The notes under the pieces were generated by a model, which had not been told where the DNA came from, made no database searches, and saw only the letters and a program-made list of their open reading frames with translations. A stretch of DNA of 30,260 nt from a virus, in IMG/VR virus record IMGVR_UViG_3300031566_000252, positions 1 to 30,260 of that record; one strand, given 5' to 3'. This document shows positions 2,884-9,003 of this stretch, one piece after another. Both the position numbers and the translations under genes were made by a program. The stretch's first letter is position 1; each line of letters begins with the position of its first letter.

Positions 2884-3542
2884 TAGTCTAGGCTTTCATA
2901 AGGTATATTCAATGCTTCTATGACTGCAAATTCAAATACTTTGCTATCATTGTCATATCCATTTAATTGTTTCATTCTTGTCTTTAGTTCTAACCATCTT
3001 TGAAATGTGTCTGATGATACCTTTAATGATATTGAATTGTCAAACTTATCTTCCTTTTCTAAATCTAAAGGTGCATCTTCTTCTACATCAAATTGCTCCC
3101 AATCAAAGTTTAAGACATCTATCATATTAGATATTTCCTTTTCATCAAACGGCATTGTTTCAGCCATCTTTTCAATAGAATAGACTTCTTTTAATTCTTC
3201 AAAGGTTTCTCCTAACTTAAAAGCATTAGACTTAAATCTAGTTTCATTAGTTTCAATAGCAACGATTTGAGCATCTGCTTTAGACATCTCTCCATAGTTA
3301 TATGCGTGAGCCTTATCCATACCTATTTCTCTCATTACATCTAATCTGTGGTTACCATTTACCACTTCATACTTATCTCCTAGTTCTCTTATTTGAATGT
3401 TCTCTACTTGTCCATTCTTTTTGAAATTAGCTATAAGTTTTTCAGTTTGTTTTTCATCTTCTTCCTTATAGTTCCAATCTGCTTTTACTAAGTCTTTGAT
3501 TTCTATATCTACCCAACCCAGTTTATGTTTCTTTTTTGCCAT
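2883..3542 (-). CDS. ParB-like N-terminal (ParB/Srx nuclease-like) domain protein
   Basis: 219 aa. ParB-fold signature YEVVNGNHRLDVM. Its start overlaps the 3' end of the DpdA gene by 34 nt. Confidence 0.7.
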   Translation of the reverse strand: MAKKKHKLGWVDIEIKDLVKADWNYKEEDEKQTEKLIANFKKNGQVENIQIRELGDKYEVVNGNHRLDVMREIGMDKAHAYNYGEMSKADAQIVAIETNETRFKSNAFKLGETFEELKEVYSIEKMAETMPFDEKEISNMIDVLNFDWEQFDVEEDAPLDLEKEDKFDNSISLKVSSDTFQRWLELKTRMKQLNGYDNDSKVFEFAVIEALNIPYESLD

Positions 3543-4387
3543 AGTTCTGTATAAAATTGTTCGTATTCTTTATATGCTTTGATACCTAATCTCATATTGT
3601 ATAATCTTCTTTTGGCTAAATCATCTCCAAATAGAATTTCAGTATCTAATTTACCTAACTTATTTATTACTTTTTGTTTATCCTTAAACCTAACTGCTTT
3701 GATACTTCCTTTTTCGTGGAATGGTATTGTTCCATACATTTCACTTTGTAACCAACTTGTACTATCAACAGAATAGAAAGGATAGTTTCTTAATACTTCT
3801 GTTTTAGTCATAGCAAATCCGTGTACCTTTATTCCTCTATCATAAGCAGGTTTGATTAATTTGTTATAGTTTAATCTTTTCCTGTGTCCTCTATCTCCCT
3901 CCAATGCTATGTAGCCACTCTCACAAGTATCAAGCATTTCCATATAATCATTCCAATCCATTGTGGTTGGGTGGTAAACAGGTACGCATTTAGAATAAAG
4001 GTTTTCTTTTCTTAATACATCTCTCCATTCCAATACTACTTCTTGTGTTACTATCTCTCCAATATCTAATTCAGCATAGTAATCAAACTTGTCAAAGTTT
4101 TCTTTTAGCCATATAACATAAGCATCAAAGTATTCTTGTGGTGTTTCCTTTGTCTTACTTTTCTTTGAATGAAAGGTTGCACTCATTACTCCCTCCTCTG
4201 ATTTTTCATTAAAGAAAGAATGTGCACCACTATCAATGAATAGTATCTTATGTGCTTCTTTAGTACCCTCCATTACTTGTGGTCTTTTGTTACCTCTTAA
4301 GTAATAGTAAGAATAGAAAGCATATTCTATTTCATTTTTAACCTTTTGTGGCTCTCCACCCTCAACACCTGCTAGAAATATTTTCAT
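3509..4387 (-). CDS. dpdA: DpdA-family DNA guanine transglycosylase (TGT-like 7-deazaguanine inserting enzyme)
   Basis: 292 aa. Signatures FIDSGAHSF, YIALEG, KVHGFAMT and YSVDSTSW match the DpdA/TGT-like pattern. Sits in an operon with queD/queE/folE. Confidence 0.8.
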   Translation of the reverse strand: MKIFLAGVEGGEPQKVKNEIEYAFYSYYYLRGNKRPQVMEGTKEAHKILFIDSGAHSFFNEKSEEGVMSATFHSKKSKTKETPQEYFDAYVIWLKENFDKFDYYAELDIGEIVTQEVVLEWRDVLRKENLYSKCVPVYHPTTMDWNDYMEMLDTCESGYIALEGDRGHRKRLNYNKLIKPAYDRGIKVHGFAMTKTEVLRNYPFYSVDSTSWLQSEMYGTIPFHEKGSIKAVRFKDKQKVINKLGKLDTEILFGDDLAKRRLYNMRLGIKAYKEYEQFYTELWQKRNINWVG

Positions 4388-5328
4388 AATAATTTAAGTA
4401 TGTTATCAAAGTTCTTAACCTTATATGGTTTAGGCTTCTTGTAATTGTGTATAGCATTGTGTACTTTATCAATCAATTCTTCCATATTATCAAATAGGTT
4501 ATCAGGTAATGTTTCCCTATAAGATAATCTATTAGGTGCAAATGGTATGCAACCTAAATTTAAACTTTCTAACATAGCTATACCAAATGTTTCTTGTAAT
4601 GCAAAACTAACTGATACTTTTGCTCTTGATAATAACTTATAGTATTCATCCTTAGTAGTCCAAACATCTTTTGTTTTTATCCATTCTATTTTATCATTAG
4701 GATATTTTTCTTTGTAGTCTTCTATCAGTTTATCAAATAAGAAAGGTTGTTTTTCATTTGCCAACCTGTGTGGAAATACTACTATATCTTCTTTTGGTTG
4801 TGGCTTATGATTATCAGTAAATACAGGAAACTTTTCTACCACTATCTTATCCCAAGTAGCACCAAAGTATTCTTCTATAATTTTTTTATGAAAGTCAGTA
4901 GCTACTATAACTTTATCTACACATTCTATCATAGCAAATTCCACACCTGTTGCCCACCTTGTCAATTCCTTTTGTGCTAGGAAATCATACTTATCCCAAC
5001 AACCTGCGTGTAACATTCCAACCATTTTAAACTTTAAGTCCATACAATCTCTTATGTATGCTATGTTAGTTACTATGGGATTCCATAAGTCTAAAAAGAA
5101 TATAGTATCATCATCAGTTATCTTACCCTCTTTGATAAGTTTAATGATTTCTAATCCCTGTTCTAGTTTAAATTGGTTAGTACCTATCACATCAAGGAAC
5201 TCTCCCTCTTTGATTTCTTGTACTTCTTGATTACCTACAATTACATCCACCTTATCTTTTAAGGCATCTAACCATTGTTTAGTATATCTTTCTTCTATTG
5301 ATTCTATGTGTGCTAAAATTATTGCCAT
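4384..5328 (-). CDS. GT-B fold glycosyltransferase (GT4/GT1-like) embedded in the deazaguanine island
   Basis: 314 aa. C-terminal E-x7-E motif QETFGIAMLESLNLGCIPFAPNRLSYRE, and the second Rossmann domain begins VVFPHRLANEKQPFLF. ATGA overlap with dpdA. Confidence 0.75.
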   Translation of the reverse strand: MAIILAHIESIEERYTKQWLDALKDKVDVIVGNQEVQEIKEGEFLDVIGTNQFKLEQGLEIIKLIKEGKITDDDTIFFLDLWNPIVTNIAYIRDCMDLKFKMVGMLHAGCWDKYDFLAQKELTRWATGVEFAMIECVDKVIVATDFHKKIIEEYFGATWDKIVVEKFPVFTDNHKPQPKEDIVVFPHRLANEKQPFLFDKLIEDYKEKYPNDKIEWIKTKDVWTTKDEYYKLLSRAKVSVSFALQETFGIAMLESLNLGCIPFAPNRLSYRETLPDNLFDNMEELIDKVHNAIHNYKKPKPYKVKNFDNILKLL

Positions 5329-5642
5329 ACCTCTGCTCCATTTTCATTGTCCTCTAATACAGAACAATAGTTTAATTGAAATACTGTTAGTAATTCTTTT
5401 GCTATCATTTCACAAGACATATCTCCAAATGTTTTAGGGTACATATCTTCTAGGAATTGATTGATAGTTCTTTTCAATAGTATGATTTCTATATCTCTAT
5501 CATCGTGGGTAACTTCTTTCTTGCAACATATATGAAAAATATGTCTGTGTGGAAATGCTAGAAACTCAACTCCCTCTAACTTACAATCAGTCCATTGGTG
5601 TACTGCTTCGTGTTGTAGGTTTACTATTATATTTGTTTTCAT
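5319..5642 (-). CDS. Small T-fold (QueD/PTPS-like) protein; second paralogue of unknown role
   Basis: 107 aa. The pattern LQHEAVHQW..C...(x)..FPHRHIFHI resembles the QueD/PTPS Zn-binding H...H / HxH arrangement. Overlaps both neighbours. Confidence 0.45.
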   Translation of the reverse strand: MKTNIIVNLQHEAVHQWTDCKLEGVEFLAFPHRHIFHICCKKEVTHDDRDIEIILLKRTINQFLEDMYPKTFGDMSCEMIAKELLTVFQLNYCSVLEDNENGAEVWQ

Positions 5643-6469
5643 TTAATTAATTCTAGAAATTCACTTTTCACTTTATGGTCTGTTTTAAAATTACCTATCA
5701 GCTTTGATGTGGTAGTCCAAGTGTCGTGTTTCTTAACACCTCTCATCTCCATACACATATGTTTAGCCTTTAAGACTACTGCTATACCTAAAGGGTCTAG
5801 TTCCTCTTGCAGAAACTCTGCTACTTGTGTTGTTATTCTTTCTTGGTTTTGTAATCTTCTGCTAAAGGTTTCCAAAGTTCTAGCTAATTTACTTAATCCA
5901 ACTATTCTTTTGTTAGGTATGTAAGCTATGTGTCCGTGTCCAAAGAATGGTGCTACGTGATGTTCACACAAAGAATGAAAAGGTATATTAGTTTGTACAA
6001 TCATTTCATCATATCCCTCACTTTCAAAAGTGGTACAATTCCATTTAGGAGGATTAAGAAACTCCTTAAAGAATTTAACATATCTTTTTGGTGTATCTTG
6101 TAAACCCTCTCTGTTTGTATCTTCTCCAAATGCTTGTAACAATCTTGCCACACTATCTTCTGCATCTCGTTCTCCTGATTCTTCCCAAGGAAACTCTAAC
6201 CAACCTAAATCAGTTTCATCTATCTTATTCCATAAAGCAACAAAAGGAATATCAGGATATTTATCTTTCCACTTCATTGCCGTTCTACCACTATCAATTA
6301 AATCATCAACTATGTAATCAGCTTGTTCAGGTGTATCTACTGCATTTCCTGTTAGTCCTGCAATGATTTGTCCACCTCTAGGTACTCCATAGTATTTTCC
6401 TTTAGGTAATTTTTTTACTCTTTCATAAATTTGTTCCCAAGTAATTACACTCCTGTTGTTTTGTTCCAT
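5639..6469 (-). CDS. folE: Fusion protein: N-terminal minimal Gpt-like phosphoribosyltransferase domain plus GTP cyclohydrolase I (FolE)
   Basis: 276 aa. Residues 1-97 align by eye with E. coli Gpt (ITWEQIYERVKKL / VPRGG / YIVDDLIDSGRT PRPP loop / WLEFPWEE). Residues ~100-276 carry GCH-I signatures LQDTPKRY, CEHHVAPF, GLSKLAR, QNQERIT and KHMCMEMRGV. Confidence 0.85.
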   Translation of the reverse strand: MEQNNRSVITWEQIYERVKKLPKGKYYGVPRGGQIIAGLTGNAVDTPEQADYIVDDLIDSGRTAMKWKDKYPDIPFVALWNKIDETDLGWLEFPWEESGERDAEDSVARLLQAFGEDTNREGLQDTPKRYVKFFKEFLNPPKWNCTTFESEGYDEMIVQTNIPFHSLCEHHVAPFFGHGHIAYIPNKRIVGLSKLARTLETFSRRLQNQERITTQVAEFLQEELDPLGIAVVLKAKHMCMEMRGVKKHDTWTTTSKLIGNFKTDHKVKSEFLELIK

Positions 6470-7170
6470 AATTCAATTTGTAACCTTGTACAGAATTTAA
6501 TACTCTCACGAATACATAAGTCTGCTACAAAGTTTTGATTAGTTTTTAATTCAGTTAAGTCCTCTGCATTAGGCATCAGATATATTTTGTTTCTGTCTAC
6601 ATTAAATTCTTGTATCTCATTCCAATTATCTTCATTGCTTATAACAAATTTAAAAATAGATACAGGACTATTGTTAAAAAATTCAATCACTTCTGGTATG
6701 TGTCTTTTGTTTTTAGGCATTCCACTATTACCAAGTTTAGGACTAACATTATATAAATCAATCCAATAATCTAATTCCTCTAATGGCTCAATCGTTCCAT
6801 TTGTTTCTACTTCTACAAAAGGATGATAACCTTTATTGGATAAGTAATTCATTACCTCAATGATTGCTTTCTGTTGCATTAAAGGTTCTCCACCTGTCCA
6901 AATTAGATGTGTACCTTTTTTCATTTGCTCTCCGTACAAATCAATAAGCATTTTGCCTACTTCTTCTACTTCATAAGTTATACCTTTTGTCCAAACTTCT
7001 AATGTGTCGCACCTCCAAGTTGCTCCATCATATAGTTGTCCATCTTTCTGTGTGCCATAACCTCCACACAATAAATTACAAGCCTTTAATCTAACAAAGA
7101 TAGCAGGTACACCCATTGTTTCTCCCTCGCCCTGTAAACTATAAAAATGTTCTGATACTTTAATTTTCAT
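6445..7170 (-). CDS. queE: 7-carboxy-7-deazaguanine synthase (QueE, radical SAM)
   Basis: FYSLQGEG N-terminal motif, cysteine cluster ACNLLC...WRCDT, and GGEPL. I prefer the ATG at 7170 over the track's GTG at 7179. Confidence 0.8.
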   Translation of the reverse strand: MKIKVSEHFYSLQGEGETMGVPAIFVRLKACNLLCGGYGTQKDGQLYDGATWRCDTLEVWTKGITYEVEEVGKMLIDLYGEQMKKGTHLIWTGGEPLMQQKAIIEVMNYLSNKGYHPFVEVETNGTIEPLEELDYWIDLYNVSPKLGNSGMPKNKRHIPEVIEFFNNSPVSIFKFVISNEDNWNEIQEFNVDRNKIYLMPNAEDLTELKTNQNFVADLCIRESIKFCTRLQIELWNKTTGV

Positions 7171-7618
7171 ATGATGCACTATTTTTGTTGTTTTCTCTTA
7201 CTGTTACTTTACTTACCTTTACTCTATTTGACGTTTCTTTACATACAAATTCATTTACCTTATTGTAAATAAACTCTGCAAACTTTTCAGCACCTACATC
7301 ATCAATCTTTCTTAACTGAATAATTTTAGATTCTTCTAATATATTATACATATACATTTTAGGGTCATCATTGGCTACTATCATAGTATGGTCAAACATA
7401 TAATCAAACCATTCTTTAGGACTTTTGCCATCAATAGTTCCTTTGGCTCTTTTCATTCCTCCGAAATCCCATACCCAATTCCTATCGTCTAACTCTCCCT
7501 CAAATTCTATAAGAAAAGAAAGTGCGTATCCGTGCAAGTAATAACAATGTGTATCTATTGCGTGGTGTTGTCTGAACACACAAGAATAACCATCAAATAA
7601 CTTACTACTCTTAAACAT
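7160..7618 (-). CDS. queD: QueD-family 6-carboxytetrahydropterin synthase-like T-fold protein (LHGY variant)
   Basis: 152 aa. FRQHH...HCYYLHGYALSF...WVWDFGGMK...FDHTMIV parallels E. coli QueD AAHRL...KCGRLHGHSF...IIDFAELK...LDHHYLN. The third His is replaced by Tyr. Confidence 0.7.
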   Translation of the reverse strand: MFKSSKLFDGYSCVFRQHHAIDTHCYYLHGYALSFLIEFEGELDDRNWVWDFGGMKRAKGTIDGKSPKEWFDYMFDHTMIVANDDPKMYMYNILEESKIIQLRKIDDVGAEKFAEFIYNKVNEFVCKETSNRVKVSKVTVRENNKNSASYEN

Positions 7619-8323: not shown

Positions 8324-8531
8324 CTGTCTTTTTTAATTTTAGTATACCAAAAGGTTTAGCATCTTTAGAATAAATTATATCTACATCTTCAAACTCTATT
8401 GTATTCAAATCTATTAGATATTCTAATTCATTATCTTTATTGTAAAATTCTATCACTGGAATATTGTAATCACAGTAATCTATCAATTCAGCTAGTTTCA
8501 TTAATTGTTTTTCTAATTTTATTTTTGACAT
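8307..8531 (-). CDS. Hypothetical protein (74 aa)
   Basis: Minus-strand ORF with an acidic product. Overlaps the 3' end of the sigma-like gene. Confidence 0.55.
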   Translation of the reverse strand: MSKIKLEKQLMKLAELIDYCDYNIPVIEFYNKDNELEYLIDLNTIEFEDVDIIYSKDAKPFGILKLKKTDDKES

Positions 8532-9003
8532 TCTTAATTGTATAGAATATACTTCTACGGCTGATGCCTGTTTTTTCTGCTAAAGTTGTGTAGGTATATT
8601 TACTTCCATTGTTATCTCCAAAGTAATAAAGTTTGAAAAGTTCTCTATCATACCAATAAAAATTATCTAATTCATTCATAATCAAATGGATAGATTTTTC
8701 ATTTGTATTATCATTAGTAAATATAAAAGTATCTAAATTAGTGTCTTGGTCGTCTATATGTTGTTGATTGTATTTTTTAATCTTATAGTAATACCTACTA
8801 GTTTTAGAATGATACATCAAACTCATTATCCTTGCACCAAAAAAAAAGAGTTCACCTTTTTGTCTGATGGACTCTAAATCTTCTTTAGGATATTGATACA
8901 TTGCTACAAAGCATTCGTGAAGCAAGTCTTCTGCATAACTTGTTTTACAGATATTCTGTGCTATGTTTAATAGCTTATCGTACTCTCCTTGTGTCAAATT
9001 CAT
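8488..9003 (-). CDS. Sigma-70 family (ECF-like) RNA polymerase sigma factor
   Basis: 171 aa from ATG 9003. Region-2-like DLLHECFVAMY and region-4.2-like HTH YTTLAEKTGISRRSIFYTIKNVKNKIRK. Confidence 0.6.
   Translation of the reverse strand: MNLTQGEYDKLLNIAQNICKTSYAEDLLHECFVAMYQYPKEDLESIRQKGELFFFGARIMSLMYHSKTSRYYYKIKKYNQQHIDDQDTNLDTFIFTNDNTNEKSIHLIMNELDNFYWYDRELFKLYYFGDNNGSKYTYTTLAEKTGISRRSIFYTIKNVKNKIRKTINETS

Follow-up and report, generated by a model that had tools for sequence, protein, structure and literature searches.

The DNA analyzed here comprises positions 1 to 30,260 of the IMG/VR virus record IMGVR_UViG_3300031566_000252; we refer to this whole stretch of 30,260 nucleotides as the window. 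Our subject is a gene on its minus strand (5639..6469), a single uninterrupted reading frame of 276 amino acids in which a domain resembling Gpt, the xanthine-guanine phosphoribosyltransferase (XGPRT) of Escherichia coli, is followed by a GTP cyclohydrolase I (FolE). The parts of this gene on which the argument turns are listed below, where PRT stands for phosphoribosyltransferase and PRPP for phosphoribosyl pyrophosphate.

6179..6469, minus strand: minimal Gpt/XGPRT-like PRT domain, residues 1-97 of the 276 (phmmer, family profile, phrog_8995, AlphaFold and Foldseek)
6371..6379, minus strand: R31-G32-G33 (in VPRGG), the pyrophosphate-binding loop I, equivalent to Gpt R37-G38-G39 (MAFFT; at least 90% conserved in 150 representatives)
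6281..6316, minus strand: YIVDDLIDSGRT, the PRPP/5′-phosphate-binding loop III, including D55-D56 (Gpt D88-D89) and D59 (Gpt D92) (MAFFT, profile alignment)
6224..6226, minus strand: K82, equivalent to Gpt K115 (invariant with Gpt; Lys in 46 of 52 QueC-type and 17 of 17 DpdL-type loci)
6182..6202, minus strand: the hood motif WLEFPWE, with W90 equivalent to Gpt W134 and E96 to Gpt D140 (MAFFT, profile alignment)
5639..6163, minus strand: complete GTP cyclohydrolase I (FolE), residues 103-276 and the stop codon (PF01227, TIGR00063, structure alignment)

Residues 104-275 match the Pfam family PF01227 (GTP_cyclohydroI) with an E value of 1e-65 and 220.8 bits against a cut-off of 27, and the FolE half also clears the cut-offs of TIGR00063 folE (204.8 bits, cut-off 181.6) and NF006825 (211.9 bits, cut-off 174). 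It aligns with solved FolE structures across the entire catalytic domain, and its SLCEHHVAPF and KHMCMEMRG segments line up with the CEHH and HMCM motifs of those structures; CEHH ... HxC are the zinc and catalytic motifs of FolE. By its sequence, this half is a normal GTP cyclohydrolase I. An initial annotation, made from the letters alone, had allowed that the two domains might be separate open reading frames joined by a sequencing error. That origin is ruled out by a second protein (P0018) that is 97% identical and of equal length, and the fusion is not an artefact because the same architecture recurs in more than 120 metagenomic protein clusters and in 79 of the 80 loci of our IMG/VR survey (L016-L095; in the other locus the PRT adjoins FolE). 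The metagenomic clusters, formed at 90% identity, come from marine and other metagenomes, and their members span 272-295 residues and share 67-97% identity with the window protein. Certain PRT-FolE genes run to roughly double the usual length (L078 9980-11722; P0246 and P0328, about 582 residues), and Intein_splicing, HNH_3 and Hint Pfam matches are present among the best 150 family members, which suggests that the long genes carry an intein inserted in the fusion gene.

Taken alone, the N-terminal domain of about 100 residues gives no Pfam match even at an E value of 10, PF00156 included, and it scores 23.9-27.9 bits against NF006613 (xanthine PRT), for which the cut-off is 138. Other searches do connect it to XGPRT. 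A phmmer search of the PDB matched it to the E. coli and Yersinia enzymes in two blocks (E 4e-4), and these are exactly the blocks that the initial annotation had picked out by eye, with YIVDDLIDSGRT, WLEFPWE and RGG at the sites it had named. In PHROGs the domain matches phrog_8995, ‘phosphoribosyl transferase’ (E 4e-6), and a profile made from 59 diverse members of the family aligns with XGPRT end to end (profile positions 3-112, chain positions 3-141, E 2.7e-10). The AlphaFold model of the isolated domain has a pLDDT of 93.7, and the PRT region of the full-length model reaches 98. When that fold was compared with the PDB by Foldseek, the best 19 matches were all XGPRT, with a probability of 1.00 and a query-normalized TM score of about 0.7.

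Residue equivalences were read from a MAFFT alignment with E. coli Gpt, and its blocks agree with the PDB-chain alignments. Invariant with Gpt are R31, G32, G33, D55, D56, D59, G61 and T63, and further K82, W90, P94 and W95. Loop III follows the expected pattern of two hydrophobic residues and then D-D-x-x-D-[ST]-G-x-T, in which D55, D56, D59, G61 and T63 are at least 90% conserved in the 150 representatives, and the purine hood is recognizable from K82, W90, P94, W95 and E96, which align with Gpt K115, W134, P138, W139 and D140. Gpt D92, the counterpart of D59, is the Asp that touches purine N7 in 6-oxopurine PRTs; in XGPRT structures Gpt K115 makes the contact to O6 of the 6-oxopurine, and Gpt W134 is the base-stacking residue of the hood. 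The residues equivalent to Gpt ligand contacts outside the deleted loop described below are invariant or at least 90% conserved in relatives down to about 30% identity, and those at the catalytic or Mg-binding positions (D59 and E96) are conserved to the same degree as those that purely bind. The initial annotation had asked whether a structure prediction would find the purine pocket intact: the base-binding residues are present, the model is confident and its fold is that of XGPRT, so that the pocket looks intact. From the sequence comparisons and the predicted structure, we conclude that the N-terminal ~97 residues are a shortened, phage-specific member of the Gpt branch of type I PRTs. The proposal of a minimal Gpt-like domain on a complete FolE was in this respect sound, given the profile E value, the pLDDT and the TIGR00063 score above its cut-off.

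XGPRT (PDB entries 1A95, 1A97, 1NUL, 4JLS, 5XTK and 6KP5) is the best match by both profile and fold, and the two share the order of their elements: the RGG pyrophosphate loop, the DDLxD[ST]GxT PRPP loop, the O6 Lys, the stacking Trp and PW[DE]. They differ in that the phage domain has about 97 residues against 152, is fused to FolE, is almost confined to phages, and has lost a hairpin, some 10 residues of the hood and the C-terminal tail. The profile alignment (HMMER) places two deletions, of 21 and 10 residues, and MAFFT likewise two, of about 27 and about 11 columns. The larger removes the strand2-loopII-strand3 hairpin, which bears the catalytic flexible loop, and the smaller removes the ~10 residues of the hood; DSSP on the model assigns a helix at 32-39 and then a strand at 52-58, with the hairpin between them absent. 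The initial annotation had described a gap of about 30 residues in the center of Gpt; the missing segment is real, but it is two deletions and not one block. Because the flexible loop II of type I PRTs is absent and the scores fall below the cut-offs of the curated models, we class the domain not as Gpt itself but as a shortened variant, new and specific to phages, within the Gpt branch. With the flexible catalytic loop gone, the enzyme is expected to be slow unless another element closes the site, possibly one within the FolE oligomer, and the domain may catalyze only weakly or serve mostly for binding.

Beyond what the initial annotation had described, the module is widespread, it also occurs unfused, and the part it lacks is the catalytic flexible loop. 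A profile built from the window and metagenome proteins only, when searched against 1.84 billion representatives, gave 1210 clusters (50% identity) at E <= 1e-10; among the best 150 of these a FolE domain is present on 49, and the remainder includes many short or fragmentary sequences. FolE matches occur in 392 phage records of GenBank, of which 34 bear the same N-terminal domain under no other annotation than GTP cyclohydrolase. Among them are the Pseudomonas phages NP1, PaMx25 and PAJD-1, Stenotrophomonas phages, Vibrio phage VpKK5 and Sphingomonas phage MMDA13. Among 185,579 species genomes only 17 loci match, mostly ordinary Gpt at 23-27% identity, and since these matches are weak or rare, the minimal form is essentially a phage protein. 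PRT-FolE fusions do lie in chromosomes of metagenome-assembled genomes of Dehalococcoidia and Tepidiformaceae (L101 7950-8858; L104 7872-8843). The neighbors of the L101 fusion are carboxylesterase and FG-GAP genes, and within 8 kb of it we detected no que or dpd genes.

Two close relatives of the window phage, L002 and L003, have exchanged their FolE. DNA homology to the window covers the PRT domain together with the first FolE helix, stops there and resumes at the downstream gene for DpdL; in L002 the swapped FolE body lies at 8333-8999 against 5695-6134 in the window. The PRT of these relatives is a reading frame of its own, 132 residues long and closing with what is left of the FolE helix, and behind it comes a non-homologous FolE of 218 residues. 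Between the window copy and the unfused copy of L002 the PRT part has a dN/dS of about 0.21, and by this sequence measure the PRT module is under purifying selection. Since it persists as a separate reading frame after the FolE swap with that dN/dS, the module is evidently maintained under constraint even where its original partner is gone. The other unfused copies, too, mostly end in the EDNxxRxxQY remnant of the FolE helix, which suggests that unfused copies descend from fusions, and the PRT adjoins FolE unfused in Flavobacterium phage immuto_2-6A, L015, L086 and L002. Two unfused minimal PRTs (L012 6291-7426 and L013 7001-8116) adjoin genes with Acb2_Tad1_hairpin or Tad6 Pfam matches, and within 7 kb of these two copies there are no 7-deazaguanine genes. 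One of the two (P0142) resembles a truncated remnant of an NP1-type fusion. We dropped the idea of an anti-defense function because only these two unfused copies lie near such genes and one is a likely remnant.

These observations bear on the view of the domain as an evolutionary remnant that is inert, or as a mere folding or oligomerization appendage of FolE. The domain is shortened, it falls under the cut-offs of all curated PRT models, and most phage FolE genes do without it, as the 34 of 392 records illustrate. An inert remnant would nevertheless not be expected to hold its active-site residues at 90% or more in 150 representatives of a family of some 1200 clusters at 50% identity, to show a dN/dS near 0.2, to survive as its own reading frame once FolE has been replaced, or to have a fold predicted with high confidence. 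We regard this view as highly improbable.

The window itself is essentially a whole tailed-phage genome of about 30 kb. L002 (30.7 kb, 77-87% identical) aligns around the window ends, and the way this alignment wraps past them makes the window look like a complete genome in circularly permuted form. It encodes terminase, portal, tape measure, lysis genes, a replication initiator and a single-stranded DNA-binding protein, and we detected in it no DNA polymerase, nucleotide kinase, ribonucleotide reductase or dGTP-clearing enzyme. A megablast of the locus against the INPHARED phage genomes gave zero matches. The fusion gene lies third in a co-directional series (QueD, QueE, PRT-FolE, DpdL-like, GT-B-like, DpdA1-like), whose other members are as follows, with CDG standing for 7-carboxy-7-deazaguanine.

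7160..7618, minus strand: QueD-like 6-carboxytetrahydropterin synthase (Pfam PTPS, E 1.5e-13; phrog_2389, E 1e-35)
6445..7179, minus strand: QueE-like CDG synthase (phrog_2076, E 4e-50; ad-hoc HMM, E 1e-70)
5319..5642, minus strand: DpdL-like protein of 107 residues, proposed to decarboxylate CDG, immediately downstream of the fusion gene (LAFPHRHIF; phrog_17812, E 3e-23)
4384..5328, minus strand: GT-B-type glycosyltransferase-like protein, between DpdL and DpdA (Pfam Glycos_transf_1, E 2e-7; phrog_4356)
3509..4387, minus strand: DpdA1-like DNA guanine transglycosylase (phrog_887, ‘queuine tRNA-ribosyltransferase’, E 1e-31)

The last 25 nt of the QueE-like gene, at its 3′ end, are shared with the start of the fusion gene. 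The LAFPHRHIF segment of the DpdL-like protein fits the DpdL signature LxxxHRHxF (PMC10516641), and an ad-hoc HMM found no QueC anywhere in the window. The window DpdA matches that of phage NP1 (BLASTP E 2e-12), tblastn also reaches annotated phage DpdA genes, and a DpdA3 type is ruled out, as the protein has no similarity to the DpdA3 of immuto_2-6A and resembles DpdA1-type genes. With DpdA, FolE, QueD and QueE present, and the DpdL branch in place of QueC, this is a 7-deazaguanine DNA-modification cluster, and by analogy with Cellulophaga phage phiST (PMC10516641) the DNA of the window phage is predicted to carry 7-deazaguanine. The GT-B-like gene is part of the cluster by position, although 7-deazaguanine has no side chain to glycosylate; by an ad-hoc HMM, 9 of the 80 IMG/VR loci carry this gene, every one of them of DpdL type, and none of the 52 of QueC type does.

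The same surroundings recur across the IMG/VR loci. QueE is present in 76 of the 80, QueD in 72 and DpdA in 66, every time on the same strand, and most of the loci without DpdA are short contigs. QueC is found in 52 loci and DpdL in 16, and the two never occur together, which fits a split after CDG into two alternative branches. The PRT module accompanies Gat-QueC, QueC, QueC plus QueF-L and DpdL clusters alike. Gat-QueC offers a parallel as another accessory domain fused to a core enzyme of the preQ0 pathway in Queuovirinae-type clusters; it changes the end product to G+, whereas the PRT domain occurs whatever the end product. When the residues at the contact positions were compared between 52 QueC-type and 17 DpdL-type sequences, they were the same, and the idea that the domain is tuned to a substrate by cluster type was rejected since no contact position distinguishes the two.

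Gpt-like PRTs are also encoded as stand-alone genes in other 7-deazaguanine phages. The best match among predicted viral structures is a ‘phosphoribosyl transferase’ of phiST, and searches with Gpt and with this phiST protein showed that the Gpt-like PRT genes of phage genomes concentrate in 7-deazaguanine phages. Four are considered here.

L096 6908-7336: gp064 of phiST, a stand-alone PRT, present also in phiST relatives
L097 6989-7384: gp211 of immuto_2-6A, a stand-alone PRT
L117 4992-5405: YP_009169316 of CP220, a stand-alone PRT of the Campylobacter CP220-group phages
MAINES_00780 of Brevundimonas phage MaInes: a stand-alone PRT beside FolE

In immuto_2-6A the PRT lies directly upstream of FolE, inside a QueD-QueE-FolE-DpdA-DpdN-QueF cluster; in MaInes FolE and the PRT adjoin, and QueC, QueD and QueE are about 8 kb away. 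All four proteins share the signature residues of the window domain and come from phages with FolE, QueD, QueE and 7-deazaguanine DNA; their PRTs differ from the window domain in being separate genes, and our literature search turned up no characterization of any of the four. The hairpin is full in phiST and MaInes; in immuto_2-6A it is lost and the long hood kept; in the window domain both are lost. Because hairpin-keeping Gpt-like enzymes thus occupy equivalent positions in phiST and MaInes, the minimal form would descend from real enzymes. CP220, phiST and immuto_2-6A are the phages with complete guanine replacement, and they use DpdA3 (PMC10516641). All three of these completely replaced groups encode a stand-alone Gpt-like PRT, and phages with lower replacement in PMC10516641, 9g, CAjan and phiSM among them, did not surface in our PRT searches. 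The main texts of PMC10516641 and of the 2019 Nature Communications paper on 7-deazaguanine do not mention a PRT.

A further possibility is that the domain is mainly non-enzymatic, a ligand sensor in which binding of PRPP, GMP or GTP, guanine or (p)ppGpp would tune the activity or assembly of FolE. PRT folds serve regulation comparably in PyrR and PurR, and here loop II is deleted with the binding residues kept, in a domain covalently joined to the committing enzyme of the pathway. Most unfused copies keep the EDNxxRxxQY remnant of the first FolE helix, through which they might still dock on FolE, and (p)ppGpp is known to occupy the PRPP site of bacterial purine PRTs (bioRxiv 10.1101/2020.03.04.977603). 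A pure sensor, however, would not account for the conservation of Asp59 and Glu96, the catalytic and Mg-binding equivalents, at the level of the purely binding residues, nor for the full-length, loop-bearing Gpt-like enzymes that related phages hold in the same genomic role, and the persistence of the L002 module beside a non-homologous FolE is hard to square with a specific allosteric interface. We consider the sensor improbable.

The reading that we favor, tentatively and on sequence comparison, is that the domain is a 6-oxopurine (guanine) PRT that would turn guanine, that released by DpdA included, into GMP and thereby supply FolE with GTP. The domain would bind PRPP through loops I and III and hold a 6-oxopurine under the Trp/Lys hood, and its chief reaction would be guanine plus PRPP to GMP plus pyrophosphate. 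FolE, QueD, QueE and DpdL would make 7-deazaguanine from GTP, and DpdA would swap it for guanine in DNA, with one guanine freed per exchange. The PRT domain would capture this guanine, along with guanine from the breakdown of host nucleic acids, and the guanylate kinase and nucleoside-diphosphate kinase of the host would carry the GMP to GTP, the substrate of the FolE on the same polypeptide. Such a cycle would supply the sole purine input of the pathway, and it would also remove guanine, which is poorly soluble and could compete in the reversible base exchange. Product removal is plausible, given that guanine dissolves poorly and that transglycosylation can run backwards.

The alternative closest in substance is a 7-deazapurine PRT like TubE or ToyH, which would join CDG, 7-deazaguanine, preQ0 or ADG to PRPP to give a deazaguanosine 5′-monophosphate. 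Decarboxylation or tailoring, kinases and ribonucleotide reductase would then lead to the deoxynucleoside triphosphate (dNTP), on a pre-replicative route running beside DpdA or instead of it. TubE (tubercidin) and ToyH (toyocamycin) resemble the phage protein by cluster content, as purine-type PRTs encoded with homologues of GTP cyclohydrolase I, QueD and QueE. TubE, a purine-PRT homologue from such a FolE/QueD/QueE cluster, uses CDG and PRPP but not 7-deazaguanine, and the decarboxylase acts after TubE, past the CDG stage (PMC6112128); the window likewise holds FolE, QueD, QueE, a PRT and a putative decarboxylase, DpdL. They differ in that TubE is a free-standing protein of 194 residues from a Streptomyces antibiotic cluster with no DpdA partner, and in that the product of the TubE/ToyH pathway is a free nucleoside antibiotic and not DNA. 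Also in keeping with a deazapurine substrate are the Gpt-like PRTs of all the completely replaced groups and the lack of 9g, CAjan and phiSM among the PRT-search matches, as well as the finding that co-expression of DpdL and DpdA gave no dDG, so that other enzymes may be needed (PMC10516641). An ADG nucleoside in CP220-infected cells, as quoted in PMC10516641, points the same way.

Several features of the context nevertheless sit poorly with such an activity. That QueC-type and DpdL-type clusters share one domain with the same contacts speaks for a single common substrate and so against tuning to the final base, and although CDG is common to all clusters, a CDG nucleotide would bypass QueC, which acts on the base. 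The partner of the PRT, by fusion or by adjacency, is FolE specifically and not the last enzymes of the pathway, and this holds in MaInes and in the Dehalococcoidia, where no que genes are nearby, so that the context points to the FolE/GTP end rather than the deazapurine end. DpdA, present in 66 of the 80 loci, needs the free deazapurine that such a PRT would drain in competition with it, and the window DpdA is of the DpdA1 type, unlike the DpdA3 of fully replaced phages. A nucleotide-level route is further disfavored here because we detected in the window phage no polymerase, kinase or ribonucleotide reductase of its own, nor a dGTP-clearing enzyme. On balance we hold a 7-deazapurine PRT to be unlikely but not far-fetched. 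The fuller proposal, built on analogy with tubercidin, that the Gpt-like PRT is the missing enzyme for pre-replicative 7-deazaguanine nucleotides (CDG plus PRPP to a CDG ribonucleotide, then decarboxylation or tailoring, then the dNTP) seems to us rather unlikely. If it is true, complete replacement in CP220, phiST and immuto_2-6A would not depend on DpdA alone, and the same would possibly hold for the modification in the window phage.

The initial annotation had offered guanine recycling and deazapurine attachment side by side, and both are still what we infer rather than observe. Its recycling idea fits the context better, given the coupling to FolE, the occurrence with all chemistries and DpdA in 66 of 80 loci. 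Its deazapurine idea, for which it had half-named the TubE precedent, gains from that precedent and from the PRTs of fully replaced phages, and fits the context less well.

Guanine salvage also has points that weigh against it. Loop II, the site-closing element of type I PRTs, is deleted, and since loop-deleted PRTs are much slower the domain may catalyze poorly or not at all. The fusion cannot channel its product directly, as GMP is two kinase steps short of GTP. Pseudomonas and Vibrio hosts are expected to have purine PRTs of their own, so that the need for a phage copy is not obvious. An equivalent of Asp59 is also found in PRPP synthetases, which makes this residue weak evidence for a substrate that bears N7. 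Finally, the same genomic context fits a 7-deazapurine PRT if its substrate is one common to all clusters.

The initial annotation knew of no characterized fusion of this kind. Our literature search agrees: it found no publication on a PRT in phage 7-deazaguanine clusters or on a PRT-FolE fusion, Crippen et al. 2019 on CP220 not being covered. Phage 7-deazaguanine DNA modification is under active study, and the papers covered here list FolE, QueD, QueE, QueC, DpdA, DpdL, DpdM and DpdN, and never a PRT. A Gpt-derived module is thus a common, conserved and overlooked part of 7-deazaguanine clusters, usually hidden in ‘GTP cyclohydrolase’ annotations. For enzymology, it would offer a naturally occurring type I PRT pared down to about 95 residues, in which the catalytic flexible loop is gone and the other active-site residues stay under selection. 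If it salvages guanine, it would close the purine cycle of the modification, which would account for the supply of the pathway and for what draws the exchange forward; should it make deazaguanine nucleotides instead, it would open a pre-replicative route. Either reading makes the question of how these phages reach 100% replacement directly testable.

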